Origin: Helicobacter cetorum | Lineage (GTDB): Bacteria > Campylobacterota > Campylobacteria > Campylobacterales > UBA6016 | Direction: 5' to 3' | NCBI GenBank assembly: GCA_022729705.1 | Contig: DZAX01000011.1 | Location: forward strand, 1,063 to 65,062 | Length of the DNA stretch: 64,000 nucleotides | Shown here: piece after piece, positions 3,753 through 53,806 of the stretch | How positions within the stretch are numbered: the stretch's first letter is position 1 | Layout of the letters: the number at the start of each line of letters is the position of its first letter | Translations under genes and position numbers: made by a program | The notes under the pieces: generated by a model | Told to the model about the DNA's origin: nothing | Databases searched by the model: none | Seen by the model: the letters and a program-made list of their open reading frames with translations, nothing else

Positions 3753-4936
3753 GCCACCTTTTCGATTGTATTTTTAGAGCCAAATAAAGTAGCCCAAATG
3801 GACTCTATCTGCTTTGCGATATGATAACCGAGTAACGGTGGTACAGCATTACCTACAAGCTTATATGCTTCCGATGCAGAAACACTATCTGTAACAAAGC
3901 TATAATCATCTGGAAAGGTTTGTATTCTTGCGCACTCTCTGACGCTTAGCCTTCTTTGTGGCAAGCTATATTCTTCTTCTATTAATCCGCCATTTTCTTT
4001 TGATAATCTTCTAAATTCGATACTACCATGATGCTCTGACCGTATAGTTGGGGCGAGTCCATTTAGATTTATTTCAGTTTGCCCTTGACAATGTTTACCG
4101 TAATATTTTGCTTTTGAGTATTTTTGATGAGCTAAATCAGTGCTTACTTCTGGTTCAAAAAGGTCACAAAGCACATCTCTCGCCATTACAAAATTATCTT
4201 TTATATCATGCGTTGGCTCAGGATAAAGATTTATCTCGTTAGTCAAAAGCTTCTGCAAGGTATCACTATTTAATAAATCTTTACGAATGCCGATAAATAT
4301 AATCCTCTCTCTTTTTTGCGGGATGCCATAGTTGCCGGCGTGAAGAATTTTCGGCTCTAAAACAATATATCCGCCGTTAATAGTTCTAAAATCATTTGCA
4401 ATTATCTCTTTAACGTCACCCATACTTACTATACCTTTTACATTTTCAGCAATAAATATTTTTGGATTAATTATGCCTATAGCCTCTCTTAACCAATAAT
4501 ATAGCATTCCCCTAGATTCTGCGCTAGGATTATCAAAGTCCAGCTGATTATTATGTGTTTTATGAGAGTTAAAACCTTTACGCTTTCCCGCAATACTAAA
4601 GTCTTGACAAGGAAAGCCACCAGTTACAATATCTGCCTCTGGAAATATAAACTCTCTGCTCTTGGCTTTTTTGACTAAATCCACAATACTTTCTAAATGG
4701 AATACATCTTTTCTTTTAAAAAAACCTTCCCAAGCTTTTTTGGCGGATAATTTTATGTCGCAGGCAAAAATTGTTTTAAAGTTGGTTGAATGCAATTTTA
4801 CAAAATCATCTTGCGCTTTACTAATCCAAGCTTTATTTGTAATACATTTTGACTTAACCCAAAAATCACCCTCCATGCCCAAATCAAGTCCTCCGCAACC
4901 AGAAAAAAACGATACTACGTTTATTTTATTATTCAT
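3749..4936 (-). CDS. DNA (cytosine-5)-methyltransferase
   Basis: 395 aa with the canonical m5C-MTase motifs: FSGCGGLDLG (I), GGFPCQDFS (IV), ENV (VI), QKRERIIFIG (VIII), TFPDDY and GNAVPP (X). Confidence 0.9.
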   Translation of the reverse strand: MNNKINVVSFFSGCGGLDLGMEGDFWVKSKCITNKAWISKAQDDFVKLHSTNFKTIFACDIKLSAKKAWEGFFKRKDVFHLESIVDLVKKAKSREFIFPEADIVTGGFPCQDFSIAGKRKGFNSHKTHNNQLDFDNPSAESRGMLYYWLREAIGIINPKIFIAENVKGIVSMGDVKEIIANDFRTINGGYIVLEPKILHAGNYGIPQKRERIIFIGIRKDLLNSDTLQKLLTNEINLYPEPTHDIKDNFVMARDVLCDLFEPEVSTDLAHQKYSKAKYYGKHCQGQTEINLNGLAPTIRSEHHGSIEFRRLSKENGGLIEEEYSLPQRRLSVRECARIQTFPDDYSFVTDSVSASEAYKLVGNAVPPLLGYHIAKQIESIWATLFGSKNTIEKVA

Positions 4937-20447: not shown

Positions 20448-20951
20448 ATGGCCGAAGATAAAGAAAAAGTTGCGCCTGCAGGCGATAAGAAAAAAACTAT
20501 CCTAATAGCCGTTGCAGGCGGACTTCTGTTGCTACTGATAGGCGGAGGCGCAATAGCGTTTTTTGTGATTGGCGGCGATAAAGGCGACAATGAAGTGCAT
20601 TCGGCACAACCATCTAAAAAAAGAGCGGTAAGCAAGGATGACTTAACGGTTGGTCCAATGATTGAGCTTGGAAGTCTTGTTGTAAACCTTATGAGCGAAA
20701 GCGGGAATAAATTTGCAAAAATATCCGTAGCACTAGAGCTTGATTCACAAGAGCTTGCTCCGGAAATGACGGCTAAAAAAGCTATAGCGGCGGATATAGT
20801 TATCTCTGTTATCTCTTCAAAAACAGCAGAGGAGCTAATGAACCTAAAAGGTAAAGAGGCAGCTAAAAATGAGATTATGGAAAAAATAAACGAAAGACTA
20901 AAAGACGGTAGAGTCAAAAATGTCTATATTACAAACTTTGTTATTCAGTAA
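20448..20951 (+). CDS. fliL: flagellar basal-body-associated protein FliL
   Basis: 167 aa. Charged N-terminus, a single TM (ILIAVAGGLLLLLIGGGAIAFFVIGG) and the FliL C-terminal pattern (LVVNL...KFAKISVALE...ITNFVIQ). Confidence 0.85.
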   Translation: MAEDKEKVAPAGDKKKTILIAVAGGLLLLLIGGGAIAFFVIGGDKGDNEVHSAQPSKKRAVSKDDLTVGPMIELGSLVVNLMSESGNKFAKISVALELDSQELAPEMTAKKAIAADIVISVISSKTAEELMNLKGKEAAKNEIMEKINERLKDGRVKNVYITNFVIQ

Positions 20952-20959
20952 TTGAACCA

Positions 20960-21097
20960 TTTGATTGATTCTCACATTTTAAGCAAAGCTCAAAATGAGG
21001 TCTTCAGCAGACGGCTCTCGCGGCTTGCCATGATTTTGATTGATTCTCACATTTTAAGCAAAGCTCAAAATGAGGTCTTCAGCAGACGGCTCTCGCG
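20960..21097. repeat. two perfect 63-bp direct repeats (20960..21022 and 21035..21097) separated by 12 bp
   Basis: The unit TTTGATTGATTCTCACATTTTAAGCAAAGCTCAAAATGAGGTCTTCAGCAGACGGCTCTCGCG occurs twice with no mismatch. Each unit holds an imperfect palindrome, CTCACATTTTAAGC/GCTCAAAATGAG. Confidence 0.9.
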
Positions 21098-23865: not shown

Positions 23866-24002
23866 GTTTACCAACCTTACGCACCAAAAACGCAAAGACC
23901 CCTCATTTCTCCCGCGAATGCGGGTAGCTTTAGGGGGTTGCAAGGGACATTCATGTCCCTGCCGCCAATACGGGCTTTGCTCGTATTGGTGCGTAAAATC
24001 AG
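23866..24002 (+). repeat. structured MITE-like repeat, copy 1 (full length)
   Basis: Outer arms TTACGCAC (23877..23884) and TGCGTAA (23890..23896). Hairpins CCCGC-gaat-GCGGG (23911..23924), AGGGACA-ttca-TGTCCCT (23943..23960) and CCAATACGGGC-ttt-GCTCGTATTGG (23965..23989). An 8-mer, TTAATTTA, occurs at 23858..23865 and 24003..24010. Confidence 0.85.
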
Positions 24003-26523: not shown

Positions 26524-26645
26524 CTCACCTTACGGTGCCGCCCCTAAACTCCCCCGCGAAAGCGGGTAACTTCAGGGGGATGCAAGGGACATTTATGTCC
26601 CTGCCACATATACGGGCTTCGCTCGTATATGTGCGTAACATCCAG
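26524..26645 (+). repeat. structured MITE-like repeat, copy 2
   Basis: CCCGCGAAAGCGGG, AGGGACATTTATGTCCCT, CACATATACGGGCTTCGCTCGTATATGTG, and a 3' end GTGCGTAACATCCAG. Same order as copy 1. Confidence 0.85.
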
Positions 26646-26734
26646 CGGCAAAGTAACTCTTTCGTAACACACACACACTACAATCTTTACACAACTAAAC
26701 ACTGTATACAGTGATTCACTAGGGTATTTAGGTC

Positions 26735-33883: not shown

Positions 33884-34610
33884 GGATTTAAAACCGCATA
33901 TAGCTGAACTCAGGGATAGGCTTATTAAATGCGTTCTTGTCATAGCAATTGCATTTTTTGCCTGTTTCGCCGTTTGGGAGCCTATCATGGAGTGGGTCAC
34001 TATGCCGCTTAAAGAGGCGATGCCAAAAGGCGGCGACGTGATAGCCGTAAAGATGGGCGAGCAGTTTTTTACAGCCGTTAGCGTTTCATTTTTTGCCTCT
34101 CTTATTATCTCACTTCCGGTTATTTTTTATCACCTTTGGTCTTTTTTGGCTCCTGGTTTGTACGAGAATGAGAAAAAATATATTATGCCTTTTGTCACAG
34201 GGGCTACGGGTATGTTTATTGCGGGTGCGCTTTTTGCCTATTACTTTGTATTTCCGGTCGGTTTTGCCTTTCTTGTAAATTTCGGCGGTGAGCAGACTAC
34301 TGCGATGATTAGTATTGCGGAGTATTTGGGCTTTTTCCTAAAACTGATGTTTGGATTTGGACTCTCCTTTGAGCTTCCAGTGGTCGCCGCCTTGCTTGCT
34401 TTTTTTGGGCTTGTAGACGATAGACAGATGAAAGCCTCTTTTCGTTACGCCATCGTTATTATCTTTATCGTAGCCGCAGTTCTTACGCCGCCGGATGTTA
34501 TGAGTCAGCTTATGATGGCGATTCCTATGATTTTGCTATACGGCGCGGCGATAGTGATAGTAAAGATGATAAATCCGGCTCCAAAAGAAGAAGGTGCAAA
34601 AGCTGCTTGA
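33876..34610 (+). CDS. tatC: twin-arginine translocase subunit TatC
   Basis: 244 aa, six TM segments. HIAELRDRLIK and LTPPDVMSQ are conserved TatC segments. Confidence 0.92.
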   Translation: MLEDLKPHIAELRDRLIKCVLVIAIAFFACFAVWEPIMEWVTMPLKEAMPKGGDVIAVKMGEQFFTAVSVSFFASLIISLPVIFYHLWSFLAPGLYENEKKYIMPFVTGATGMFIAGALFAYYFVFPVGFAFLVNFGGEQTTAMISIAEYLGFFLKLMFGFGLSFELPVVAALLAFFGLVDDRQMKASFRYAIVIIFIVAAVLTPPDVMSQLMMAIPMILLYGAAIVIVKMINPAPKEEGAKAA

Positions 34611-35625
34611 CCCTACCCTAACCTCTTCTTACGACTACCAACTGCCGCCCGAAAGAATAGCCGCATATCCGATAAATCCAAGGAGTGCGGCAAAACTACT
34701 AGTTGTGGATAGAAAGAGCGGCGCCGTCACACACTCCACAATCTCAAAAATAGATGATTTTTTGCCGCAAAATACCAAAATAATAACCAACGATACAAAA
34801 GTAATCAAAGCACGCATTTTTGGACATAAACAAAGCGGCGGAAAAATAGAGTGCGTCGTCGTAAAACCTCTTACAAACGGCTCATTTTTGGCGTTAATGC
34901 GCGGAAGAATAAAAGTCGGCGAAAAGGTTTTTTTTGACAACAACCTCTCTCTTGAAGTCATGCGGCTTTTGGAGGACGGAAGCAGGGAGGTTCGCTTTTT
35001 TGACCATAGCGAAGAGCTTGATTTTTACCAGCTAATAGAGAAACTGGAGAAAATTGGTCATATCCCACTCCCGCCATATATCCACAGGGCGGACGAAAAA
35101 AGCGACGAAACAGACTATCAAAGCCGTTTTGCCAAAAATCCCGGAAGCGTCGCAGCCCCAACCGCTTCTTTGCATTTTGACGAAGAGCTTTTGTCAAAAC
35201 TTAGGCAAAAATACGATTTTTACGAACTTACGTTACATGTCGGGCTTGGCACATTCAAATCTGTGGAAGCCGAGGCGCTAAAGGGGCATCTTATGCACTC
35301 TGAATATTTTAACATACCACCGCACACCGCAAAACTGCTAGAATCAGACGTAAAGCTTTTATGTATCGGAACGACGGCGACTAGAACGGTCGAATTTTTC
35401 CACCGTTCAAAACAAGTCGAGGGCGAATGCGATATTTTCATCAACCCGCAAAATCCGCCGCAAAGAGTGGATATGCTGCTTACAAACTTTCACCTGCCAA
35501 AATCGACGCTTATTATGCTCGTATCCGCTTTTTTGGGGCTAGAGAAGACGCTTGAGATATACAAAGAAGCCATAGAGAAAGAGTATCGCTTTTTTAGTTA
35601 TGGCGACGCTATGCTGTTGATATAA
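34594..35625 (+). CDS. queA: tRNA preQ1(34) S-adenosylmethionine ribosyltransferase-isomerase
   Basis: 343 aa. YDYQLPPERIA, GHIPLPPYI, VAAPTASLHF, TNFHLPKSTL. Confidence 0.92.
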   Translation: MQKLLDPTLTSSYDYQLPPERIAAYPINPRSAAKLLVVDRKSGAVTHSTISKIDDFLPQNTKIITNDTKVIKARIFGHKQSGGKIECVVVKPLTNGSFLALMRGRIKVGEKVFFDNNLSLEVMRLLEDGSREVRFFDHSEELDFYQLIEKLEKIGHIPLPPYIHRADEKSDETDYQSRFAKNPGSVAAPTASLHFDEELLSKLRQKYDFYELTLHVGLGTFKSVEAEALKGHLMHSEYFNIPPHTAKLLESDVKLLCIGTTATRTVEFFHRSKQVEGECDIFINPQNPPQRVDMLLTNFHLPKSTLIMLVSAFLGLEKTLEIYKEAIEKEYRFFSYGDAMLLI

Positions 35626-41237: not shown

Positions 41238-41323
41238 CATCTCCGAATGCGGGTAGCTTTAGGGGATGCAGAGACATTTCTTGCCGCCAATACAGGCTTT
41301 GCTTGTATTGGCGCACAACATCA
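41238..41323 (+). repeat. structured MITE-like repeat, copy 4 (5' truncated, hairpin 2 degraded)
   Basis: CTCCGAATGCGGGTAGCTTTAGGGGATGCA..., CCAATACAGGCTTTGCTTGTATTGG. It ends 18 nt before the PCuAC ATG. Confidence 0.75.
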
Positions 41324-42855: not shown

Positions 42856-42985
42856 CTGATGTTACGCACAAACACGAGCAAAGCCCGTATTTGCGGCAGG
42901 GGCTATTCGCCCCTTGCATCCCCCTAAAGCTTCCCGCATTCGCAGGAGAATGGAGGTTGTAGGAGCTTTGCGTGCGTAAGGTCAG
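42856..42985 (-). mobile_element. structured MITE-like repeat, copy 5 (full length, inverted), with target-site duplication
   Basis: Ends are CTGATGTTACGCAC and GTGCGTAAGGTCAG (a 14-nt TIR, 12/14 matched). It is flanked by direct TTATACA at 42849..42855 and 42986..42992. Confidence 0.85.
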
Positions 42986-51252: not shown

Positions 51253-53208
51253 TTACACCTCCTCTTTTACCATAGATTCAAAACCAAAAACATCAACTGC
51301 TTTGACACAAACGACTCTTTTATCTTTTCGCGCAACCATGATTTTTGCACTATAAATCACATGAAGAGGGTCACCGTCATTTGCCGTGTTTTCTCTGTAA
51401 TCTTGCCATTTGCTTCTAAAGGTCACGCCGTCATAATCAGGGTCGATACTCCAATACTCAATAAGTGCCAACGGGTCAGTTGCCATAAGTTTTTGAAGTG
51501 CTTTTTTATCGTCATCATCAAGGGGAATATTATCAGGGCTTAAAAGTATGTAATTATCAAGGCTTATTTGTAACTCTTCAAGTTCGCTGTCATAGACTTT
51601 TTTCTCTATTGGTTTGATAACTAGATATTGCAACGAGCTAAATCTGATTTTGCCACTATCAACTAGTTTTTTATAAGTAGCTTTTGATTTGAGTTTATCA
51701 AGTAAATCAGGTGGAATAACCAAAACTTCAAGCTTTGAATCATTTAGTTCATTGATAGCACTACTTATATCGTATGCAAAATTCCACCCTAAAACTACAA
51801 CTTTTTCCCAACCACCTAAGAAGTTATCCCTTAACTCAATAGCTTTTTTCAAAGTAGCAAATCCAGTCATCTTGCTGGGACTATCTACAAAAACCAAAGT
51901 TTTTTTATCTTTGATATATCCCAAATTTTGCGGATGTTCATCTCCAAATCCTAAAGCCCCGCTTCCGCTCTCATCGCTAAAAAGTGAAATCACAACTTGA
52001 GATAAATCTCCGATTCGTTTATAAAGTTTGCTACTTTCAAATGCCTCTTTTTGATAATCGCCGATAGATTGATATAAAAACGGTTTCACTTCATTGTCAA
52101 TCAGCCTTTTTCTTTGTACCATAATAGAGGGTTTGCCAATGTCGGAGCTTATCCATCTGCGACCAAGCTTTTCAGCAACGGCGGCAGTTGTACCGCTTCC
52201 ACCGAAAAAATCGGCAATAATTGAGTTTTCATTTGATGAGGCTTTTATTATTCGTTCTACTAATTTTGATGGTTTTTGTGTTATGTATCCAACAAGTTCA
52301 TTTCTCCATGATGATACATTTGAAATATCTGTCCAAAAATCTTCTGGAATCTTCCCTTTTTCATGTCTTTCTAGTTGTTCCTCTTCATTATAATCCTTTT
52401 TTCCATGTACTCCTCTAGCATTTGTAAAGTCAGCTTTGTAAGCAATACGGATATCATCTGCATTAAAAACAAAATTGTTTGTTTTTGCATATCTGAATAT
52501 AACATCATGTTTTTTTGGAAAATCCTTATTTGCAGGACTTGGACCAGTATAACACCAAACAATCTCATTCCTAAAATTCTCTTTTCCAAAAATATCATCA
52601 AGCAAAATTTTCACATAATGCCCCACATGCCAATCAATATGCACATATATTGAGCCTTTTTCACTTAAAAGTTCTCTCATCAAAGCAAGTCGTGGATATA
52701 TCATTTTAAGATAACTAACCGTTCCATCTTTCCAAGTATCAGCATAAGCAAACTGTTCTATTACCGTTGGTTTTTGATTTAGATTTACATTTGGTAGAGT
52801 GATTTTTGTCCGATAATCAGCCTTTGAGTCAAACGGTGGGTCGATATAGATTAAGTCGATTTTCCCTCTCATACTTTCAAGTCCACTTGCACTATCACCG
52901 GCAAGAAGTCCTTGTATCACCAAGATATTATCCCCATAAATCAGCCTATTTTTCCAAGCATTTTCATCCTCAATAGTTGGTAACTCTCCACGAAAAAGTC
53001 CGCTTATATCTTTGCTAGGCAAAACTAGCTCATTGGTTTGTAAAGCCAAAGCATTTCCGCTATTGATTCGCTCAAGTATTCGAGCCGCTTCAGCACGCCC
53101 CTCTTTTACTATTTTTGGTAACTCTTCTATTAGTGATAAAGGCATAATTTCCCTCTTTTTACTTTTAAATAACTCAACTTTCGCACATAACCCCAGCTCC
53201 AAATTCAT
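51253..53208 (-). CDS. mod: type III DNA methyltransferase Mod subunit (N6-adenine)
   Basis: 651 aa. Motif [11 protein letters not shown] and SAM-binding [12 protein letters not shown]. Lies 1 nt upstream of res. Confidence 0.9.
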
Positions 53209-53242: not shown

Positions 53243-53457
53243 ATAAAAAAAGCTTTGAGTGCAGAGACAACGGCGGAGGTATGAACGCCGAGGCTTTAGG
53301 AAGAGTTTTTGAGCCGTACTTTACCACAAAAGAGCAAGGCAAAGGCGTAGGTCTCGGTCTTTTTATGGCACGCACAGTGATTGCAAATATGAACGGCAAA
53401 CTCAGCGTATCAAATACGGACGACGGTTTTTCTGTGTTAATTGAGTTTGAGCACTAA
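53243..53457 (+). pseudogene. orphan 3' fragment (last ~70 codons) of the histidine kinase gene
   Basis: Same sequence as 46874..47088 including the stop, but with no upstream reading frame. Confidence 0.85.
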
Positions 53458-53484
53458 AAATCTCTTGTCGCTTTACATTTTTTT
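53243..53484 (+). repeat. right copy of the 242-bp perfect direct repeat
   Basis: Identical to 46874..47115. It is followed by one extra T in the T run. Confidence 0.95.
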
Positions 53485-53806
53485 TATTTACTCATCTTTC
53501 GCACCTAATTTTAAGCGGTATGCCTTATGAAATCGCAGTTAAGTAGGGCATTATAGAAATATATTCAACACTACTTGACACTGATACTAACTTTTTTAAA
53601 ACCCCTATTTAAAGGCTTTAAAAAGAGAGAAAAAATCTATCAATAGATTTTGTGCTACTCTTTTAAAAGGAATGGTACAACGTGGTAAAACTTGGCGCTT
53701 AAACAAAAACCTCCTCTCCCATATAACCTTAAAACCGCTATAATTACCCAAAAACTACGGCTATGCAATCAAACGCCACAAGCAAACAATAGGGAAAAAC
53801 CAAAAC

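Follow-up and report, generated by a model that had tools for sequence, protein, structure and literature searches.

What kind of element is a short intergenic repeat that folds into several hairpins, recurs five times within 64,000 nucleotides of a Helicobacter cetorum genome, and changes the sequence of its hairpins while keeping their pairing? Here, the whole of this 64,000-nucleotide stretch is called the window, and coordinates refer to it unless a locus is named. The original prediction took the repeat as a candidate for a new family of structured MITEs or ncRNAs. The analysis described below indicates, with a probability of about 0.8, that it is an undescribed MITE family of Campylobacterota, common in the sulfur-oxidising members of the phylum and present in Sulfuricurvum, Sulfurimonas, Sulfurovum and some Helicobacteraceae, and that its core is under selection as a single-strand fold. 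MITEs as a kind are already known; the notable feature of this family is a core conserved strand-specifically across genera.

Copies in the window

Re-reading of the sequence has confirmed the five copies, their coordinates and their hairpin sequences, except for the start of copy 1, which had been placed at 23866. The element proper occupies 23871-24002, and 23866-23870 is flank. The core 17-mer GCGGGTAGCTTTAGGGG, with up to three mismatches allowed, matches the window only at the five copy sites, against 0.06 matches expected. Consistently, a family profile (nhmmer) finds the same five copies and none besides, with E-values of 2e-32 to 4e-14. The covariance model R1 scores the five copies between 91.4 and 54.8 bits. 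With filters off, R1 also detects a degraded sixth copy (21.7 bits, E about 1e-6), which was absent from the original prediction and overlaps the final codons of a 343-aa ORF at 34594-35625. The features are as follows.

23871..24002, plus strand: copy 1, full-length, 132 bp; R1 91.4 bits
23871-23884, plus strand: left terminal inverted repeat (TIR) of copy 1, CCAACCTTACGCAC
23911-23915/23920-23924, plus strand: P1 of copy 1
23925-23941, plus strand: linker of copy 1, TAGCTTTAGGGGGTTGC
23943-23949/23954-23960, plus strand: P2 of copy 1
23965-23975/23979-23989, plus strand: P3 of copy 1
23989-24002, plus strand: right TIR of copy 1, GTGCGTAAAATCAG
26524..26645, plus strand: copy 2, core intact, P1 loop GAAA; R1 78.4 bits
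29252..29354, plus strand: copy 3, core only, without left arm, tail GTGCGTACCATATGG; R1 84.6 bits
35612..35711, minus strand: sixth copy, degenerate; P1-like hairpin, linker TAGCTTCAG, P3 and tail GCGTACCAT; P2 lost
41238..41323, plus strand: copy 4, degraded, core only, P1 damaged; R1 54.8 bits
42849..42855, minus strand: right target-site duplication of copy 5, TGTATAA, 7 bp
42856..42985, minus strand: copy 5, full-length, 130 bp, TIRs CTGACCTTACGCAC ... GTGCGTAACATCAG; R1 83.4 bits
42986..42992, minus strand: left target-site duplication of copy 5, TGTATAA, 7 bp

Copy 1 lies between argD and a response regulator gene, copy 2 between a 102-aa ORF and pstC, copy 3 between pstB and a convergent ORF, copy 4 between fliW and an LpqE-like gene, and copy 5 between an SCO1-like gene and a TonB-dependent receptor gene. 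Copy 3 begins 17 nt past the pstB stop codon, and copy 4 directly precedes the SD+ATG assigned to the LpqE-like gene. Both TIRs are present in copy 1, where the target duplication has decayed (TAGTTTA / TTAATTT). The left TIR of copy 2 is degenerate (CTCACCTTACGGTG), and its right TIR, GTGCGTAACATCCAG, contains one additional C. The window copies are mutually 58-76% identical, indicating that they are old and diverged, and they all still fold. They are as distant from one another as from the copies of other genera, with the pairing kept in all of them.

Directly 3' of copy 2, at about 26667-26680, there is a (CA)5 run that is kept in sister strains. A weak R1 match at 20951-21039 on the minus strand (15.5 bits, E about 5e-4, filters off) contains a P3-like hairpin only; it is unconvincing and may be a very old remnant or a chance match.

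Distribution across Campylobacterota

A scan of species-representative genomes with the 17-mer GCGGGTAGCTTTAGGGG gave at least 95 stretches. About eight of the matches listed are obvious chance matches; the others come from Campylobacterota, the carriers among them being Sulfuricurvum, Sulfurimonas, Sulfurovum, unclassified Sulfurimonadaceae/Campylobacterales and one Helicobacter isolate. A metagenome scan gave 100 stretches; 80 of them were taken as loci, and nhmmer matches were obtained in 80 of the 80 (91 hits). In 721 kb of loci, the R1 model gives 141 hits. The strong set consists of about 110 copies (110-112) from more than 30 genomes. Because copies in one genome are related, these copy counts are to be read as counts of non-independent events, and a single Sulfuricurvum MAG, NZ_JALNYS01, is the source of 53 of the 112 strongest copies. 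The window itself matches MAG GCA_022730395.1 and the JGI TB_PC08 samples, which derive from sulfidic-cave biofilms of Frasassi.

No match to the family was found among PLSDB plasmids, GenBank phages or IMG/VR. The original prediction did not recognise the element as a described family, and Rfam 15 agrees: at the gathering threshold, neither the whole window nor, in 10 loci spanning all variants, any of the elements gives a hit, and around copy 1 a search at E<=10 returns noise only. Literature searches on the taxa in connection with MITEs or repeats, and on the sequences of linker and TIRs, returned nothing relevant.

Hairpins and linker of the element

From 5' to 3', the element consists of a left arm, a TTAGTAA-like box, P1, the linker WAGCTTYAGGGGG, P2, GCC, P3 and the right TIR. 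In most copies, the left arm is a near-perfect palindrome of about 45 bp, formed by the left TIR and an inverted copy of it further inside. P1 is either CCCGC/GCGGG or CCCGCATC/GATGCGGG. P2 is AGGGAC/GUCCCU and is often lengthened by G-C and U·G pairs, and P3 is a stem of 11-12 bp with a highly variable sequence. The tail, CGTAACATCAG, is the right TIR and overlaps the 3' strand of P3. A CCCCT...AGGGG helix enclosing P1 had been included in the shared order of the repeat. Such a helix is present in copies 1, 2 and 5 (CCUCC in copy 5) and in some copies of the Sulfurovum/Sulfurimonas type (CCUCU) but is missing in the large Sulfuricurvum subfamily, where P1 is the 8-bp stem CCCGCATC/GATGCGGG. 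The outer helix is therefore not a family-wide feature.

The invariance of the linker in the primary loci is partly circular because these loci were retrieved by that 17-mer. A fair sample is provided by 46 further copies, which R1 found in the same loci and which were unselected by the search pattern. In the about 30 fairly complete copies of this sample, WAGCTTYAGGGGG is kept, and two of its positions vary. In four genomes (loci L003, L094 and L038 and the Helicobacter locus L092), an unrelated AT-rich stem, CGAAAAAC/GTTTTTCG or CGAATTTT/AAAATTCG, stands in place of P1 and still abuts the linker. Because the linker is kept beside a swapped P1, it is the linker and not the sequence of P1 that is the constrained part.

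In L092 (Helicobacter sp. 16-1353), positions 766-1125 hold three tandem divergent units upstream of one gene; P1 of these units is CGAATTTT/AAAATTCG, P2 and P3 differ, and the linker TAGCTTTAGGGGG is unchanged. In the sister strains represented by L097 (about 3838-3875) and L099, a 36-nt insertion forming a hairpin, AGAGCCACCCATCGCCTATTGGCGATGGGACCCGGC, takes the place of TTA in the otherwise invariant linker of copy 3; the equivalent window position is about 29281. This insertion could be another tiny mobile hairpin. Three further candidate features have been dropped: a small peptide encoded from the P2 loop, of which the start codon is not conserved; a tracrRNA-like similarity of the antisense strand, which amounts to a 13-nt resemblance on the wrong strand; and a kissing contact of the linker with the loop of the left arm, which is not conserved.

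Terminal inverted repeats and target-site duplications

Alignment of many copies defines TIRs of 14 nt, the left one being CTGA(CC/TG)TTACGCAC and the right one GTGCGTAACATCAG. The outer arms described originally are real but were given too short, as they correspond to the inner part of the 14-nt TIRs CTGACCTTACGCAC / GTGCGTAACATCAG. Of the 112 strong copies, 51 have both TIRs; window copies 1 and 5 are among them. A 7-bp target-site duplication is perfect in 29 of these 51 full copies and has one mismatch in another 7; several of the full copies that lack a matching duplication are off by one position. The duplicated heptamers vary from copy to copy, are 93% A+T and have the consensus T-T-A-A-W-A-A. 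The insertion sites are thus AT-rich, TTAAWAA-like heptamers, often located at stop codons or just 5' of ribosome-binding sites, and such a preference bears on the evolution of operon structure.

TIRs combined with a target-site duplication of fixed length and variable sequence are the signature of a DDE transposase. Their presence here indicates transposition by a transposase that makes staggered cuts, and the TIRs and 7-bp duplications prove that the elements have transposed. The proposal of a new, structured, MITE-like family is supported. The elements are also small (130-146 bp or about 215 bp), non-coding and present in multiple copies. It is very probable that the family is a MITE mobilised in trans, with a transposase that cuts with a 7-bp stagger at TTAAWAA; the enzyme moving it would be of the DDE type.

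The full-length copies fall into length classes. Elements of 130-134 bp are of the window, Sulfurovum and Sulfurimonas type, those of 141-146 bp are of the Sulfuricurvum type with P1 extended to 8 bp, and those of 211-216 bp have an 85-nt insertion in the P2 loop. This insertion forms two extra hairpins, which themselves covary and have GAA or GAAA loops. Longer elements of 321 bp and 358 bp, the latter with three tandem cores, each lie within one TIR pair and are flanked by duplications. Empty sites were sought in sister strains and none was found; copies 1-5 are present at the same sites there.

Members of the long subfamily (about 215 bp) are found at L065 5155-5370 and L007 1030-1215 and in L056, L005 and L095. 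They have perfect duplications, and the subfamily moves as one unit. Its insertion includes an A-run/stem/T-run hairpin, AAAAAAGCCAACTGCTTGGCTTTTTT, that resembles a bidirectional terminator.

Search for the parent transposase

No autonomous parent with these TIRs was detected, either among the 200-odd loci examined (about 1.3 Mb) or within the window itself. TIR pairs that are 100-7000 bp apart and have matching flanks comprise only the 321- and 358-bp non-coding derivatives, and long repeats shared between loci are orthologous regions only. Clustering of 560 ORFs near copies produced one large cluster of two-component signalling proteins and no transposase, and neither a multi-copy ORF nor a TIR-enclosed ORF was seen in the window and the 200-odd loci. 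The genes that end at the core were also considered as a shared transposase; this was rejected because they are unrelated housekeeping genes.

The same TIRs also bound other short non-coding elements, whose interiors are unrelated or whose left arm is much longer, at L088 6583-6735, at L083 around 5328 and at L005 2943-3263. One transposase apparently services several MITE families. Because elements with the same TIRs have other interiors, the core is not simply a requirement of the transposase.

A 28-nt direct repeat at 53163-53190 and 53481-53508 (82% identical, 318 bp apart) has a core, CTCAACTTTCGCAC, that resembles the left TIR of the family. The 58-aa ORF between the two repeats (53281-53457) reads like the C-terminal ATPase part of a histidine kinase and may be a gene fragment.

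Copies without the left arm

A recognisable left TIR is absent in 57 of the 112 strong cores, and window copies 3 and 4 and the sixth copy are of this kind. Such cores are no less intact than full copies. In many cases, the core begins 0-13 nt past the stop codon of an unrelated housekeeping gene, and that stop codon is often supplied from inside the TTAGTAA-like box. The target TTAAWAA resembles this internal box, so that similar heptamers would flank the palindromic left arm of an inserted element. Slippage or palindrome deletion between these heptamers may remove the left arm, leaving immobile copies that consist of the core and the right end; window copies 3 and 4 and the sixth copy would be examples.

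At orthologous sites in different Sulfuricurvum species, three core-only copies are 95-100% identical over P1, linker and P2, compared with 73-88% identity of the coding flanks. This identity could reflect selection in place. Copy 4, however, offers a second explanation. Between near-identical sister strains, copy 4 has 8 differences in 90 nt, including one C-G to T-A double change, with about 130 nt of its flank being identical; a 5-nt deletion affects P2 of copy 4 in the window, and the same P2 is intact in the sister strain L101. Gene conversion from one copy to another explains this pattern best, and concerted evolution may thus also underlie the identity at the orthologous sites.

Covariation and strand asymmetry

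The compensatory changes noted in hairpins 2 and 3 of the window copies extend to the family, as both hairpins covary across about 140 copies. In the 141 R1 hits, standard pairs occupy 95.0% of the helix cells, compared with 81.4% after column shuffling, and none of 500 shuffles reaches the observed value. When partners are slid by 1-3 columns, pairing falls to 33-49%. Double changes occur at 24 of the 26 pairs. When each of the 33 genomes contributes a single copy, 96.8% of the cells are paired against 83.6% in shuffled alignments, the highest shuffle reaching 85.8% (0 of 500 at the observed value), and double changes are seen at 20 of the 26 pairs where 9 are expected.

The exceptions to Watson-Crick pairing are strongly asymmetric. 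In the 110 strongest copies, G·T/T·G occupies 112 helix cells and A·C/C·A 20, and the counts with one copy per genome are 48 and 1. The preference for G:T rather than A:C on the drawn strand, first seen in the window, is thus a property of the family. Because the in silico fold energy is similar for both strands, the evidence for the strand consists of these wobble counts. We conclude with high confidence that the core is held as the fold of one single strand and that its linker is constrained in sequence. The strand under selection would be the sense strand of the element itself.

Orientation of the element and role of the core fold

Orientation was counted from rough gene calls (longest non-overlapping ORFs) around the 112 copies. 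Among elements between co-directional genes, 30 are sense and 29 antisense. The sense:antisense split is 18:9 for full copies and 12:18 for core-only copies, showing no consistent bias. Sense and antisense elements do not differ in their ratio of G·T to A·C (35:4 and 32:5, respectively), and the orientation does not follow local GC skew (46:33 in loci with a clear skew, p = 0.18). A core acting within host transcripts should show a preferred orientation, which is not observed. Because the orientation is random and the G·T excess is equal in both directions, the constraint is intrinsic to the element and does not come from one-way host read-through. This argues against a cis-acting element of the riboswitch, attenuator or terminator type. 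A strand bias that is independent of the direction of host transcription and replication narrows the cause to something element-intrinsic and testable.

The original prediction spoke of a strand-specific RNA structure under selection. The strand-specific fold stands. However, the step to RNA is weakened by the orientation data, by copy 1, inside which no promoter-like or terminator-like site was found, and by the elements that combine the same TIRs with other interiors. The best surviving alternative keeps this step: the core P1-linker-P2-P3 would be primarily a functional ncRNA, be it a small RNA gene, a cis-regulatory element or a processing element, that has spread through the genome, and the MITE ends would be secondary. 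Strong covariation, a near-invariant purine-rich single-stranded linker, a G·U-type wobble far above A·C, GAAA/GAA-type loops, an optional two-hairpin expansion of the P2 loop that covaries as well, and the high identity of orthologous core-only copies relative to their coding flanks are all in its favour. However, sense and antisense elements are nearly equal in number and have the same wobble bias, the genes adjoining the copies are unrelated housekeeping genes, a U-tract is absent after P3, and full copies have TIRs and target duplications. Furthermore, gene conversion as seen at copy 4 could also yield the high identity at orthologous sites. A primarily functional ncRNA is therefore improbable.

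It has also to be considered that the hairpins are functionless and that their palindromy was passed on from a few master copies and maintained by gene conversion or by self-templated palindrome repair. Copies are not independent, the comparison of copy 4 with L101 suggests conversion between copies, and the two strands fold about equally in silico. However, the double changes at 20 of 26 pairs and the 48:1 ratio of G·T to A·C persist with one copy from each of 33 genomes, and strand-neutral DNA repair would not give 48:1. In addition, P1 has been swapped for unrelated stems with the linker kept, and the window copies have diverged as much as copies of different genera, yet their pairing is intact. 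Functionless hairpins are thus very unlikely.

Even less credit is due to a single-stranded DNA hairpin element of the REP/BIME (RAYT), IS200/IS605-derived PATE or integron attC type, a substrate of an HUH or tyrosine enzyme. In its favour, the fold is strand-specific whatever the chromosomal orientation, many copies lie right behind stop codons, and the sequence has GTAG just 3' of P1 and TTAC in the left end, resembling REP and IS608 motifs. However, REP/RAYT, IS200/IS605-PATE and attC systems are not known to have target duplications or TIRs, and REP/RAYT and PATE elements insert next to a fixed short motif, whereas among the 51 full copies 36 have their 14-nt TIRs flanked by variable 7-bp duplications (7 of them with one mismatch). 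These models are largely refuted by the TIRs and duplications. In addition, the ends are unlike the R''/R' core sites of attC (RYYYAAC/GTTRRRY), and the copies are scattered among housekeeping genes (argD, pst, fliW and TonB-receptor genes in the window) without cassette arrays.

The preferred reading remains a MITE with a core selected as a single-strand fold, and several roles of this fold may be considered. At slightly below even odds, the fold acts as RNA from the sense strand of the element. Such an RNA would arise from a weak promoter in the left arm or from read-through; the putative promoter would be located in the internal TIR copy, which reads TGCGTAAAAC or TTAGTAAT a few bases 5' of P1. 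Clearly less probable, and about equally so, are an action of the fold as single-stranded DNA in mobilisation and a fold inherited from the untranslated region of the parent, homogenised by conversion and without a present role. Somewhat more doubtful still is the idea that the three-hairpin core and the invariant WAGCUUYAGGGGG linker form a self-contained functional RNA (or single-stranded DNA) module between transposon ends; an RNA that binds a protein or switches its conformation would be an example. If this were true, the element would be a 'mobile ncRNA gene' spread over several Campylobacterota families, with left-arm-less copies retained at orthologous operon sites.

Comparison with known repeat families

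ERIC/IRU elements of Enterobacteriaceae and Vibrio are non-coding imperfect palindromes of about 127 bp. They are intergenic, often transcribed and MITE-like with TIRs. They are conserved across genera beyond their surroundings and show compensatory changes; their function is debated, with mRNA stability and processing as candidates. The present family resembles ERIC in its size, TIRs, intergenic non-coding position and a structure kept by compensatory changes. However, ERIC duplicates TA and forms one long hairpin, whereas the present element duplicates 7 bp and has three hairpins and an invariant linker; the two have no sequence similarity and belong to different phyla. Why some MITEs should preserve an internal fold together with a fixed single-stranded motif in different genera is an old puzzle, also posed by ERIC, of which the present family is a clean case.

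Correia elements (CREE/NEMIS) of Neisseria are MITEs of 100-155 bp that occur in high copy number next to genes and can be co-transcribed and fold. No cognate transposase of Correia elements is known, and the same gap exists in some accepted MITE families. The likeness to the present family lies in a TIR-bounded, gene-adjacent MITE without a known transposase. However, Correia elements have 26-bp TIRs of another sequence, a TA duplication and an IHF site and are found in one genus only, whereas the present family has a covarying multi-hairpin core and occurs in several Campylobacterota families. Membership in Correia/NEMIS was rejected because the TIR sequence differs from the consensus and the duplication is 7 bp.

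BOX and RUP of Streptococcus pneumoniae are multi-hairpin, non-coding repeats built from varying numbers of modules, and stable RNA structures are predicted for them. Their modularity is paralleled here by the three-core array in L007 and by the long P2 variant. However, BOX is without a TIR and duplication signature, and RUP duplicates TA and matches the ends of IS630-Spn1; neither has a sequence relation to the present family. REP/BIME elements (REPIN), which are mobilised by RAYT, are short extragenic hairpins, often located past stop codons, in which a hairpin and a GTAG-type motif are recognised strand-specifically. They differ in having no TIRs or duplications, whereas 7-bp duplications are the rule here, and no RAYT-like gene was seen near copies. 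ERIC/IRU, Correia and BOX/RUP thus appear to be the nearest analogues in function and structure, none of them with the same sequence, duplication length or plan of three hairpins and a linker.

Annotation of the element

The family and its covariance model provide a defined MITE for a phylum in which none was found described in the literature searched. They explain recurrent conserved intergenic blocks of 100-140 bp in Sulfuricurvum, Sulfurimonas and Sulfurovum genomes and MAGs. Such blocks can break assemblies and mislead the calling of gene starts. The five copies listed originally had all been described as intergenic, which holds for every one of them, with the caveat that some gene calls begin the next ORF inside copy 4. 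Public gene calls start the LpqE-like ORF (176 aa) within this copy, at 41266-41323. The SD+ATG at 41322 is probably the start of the LpqE-like gene, the mis-called one having been caused by copy 4.
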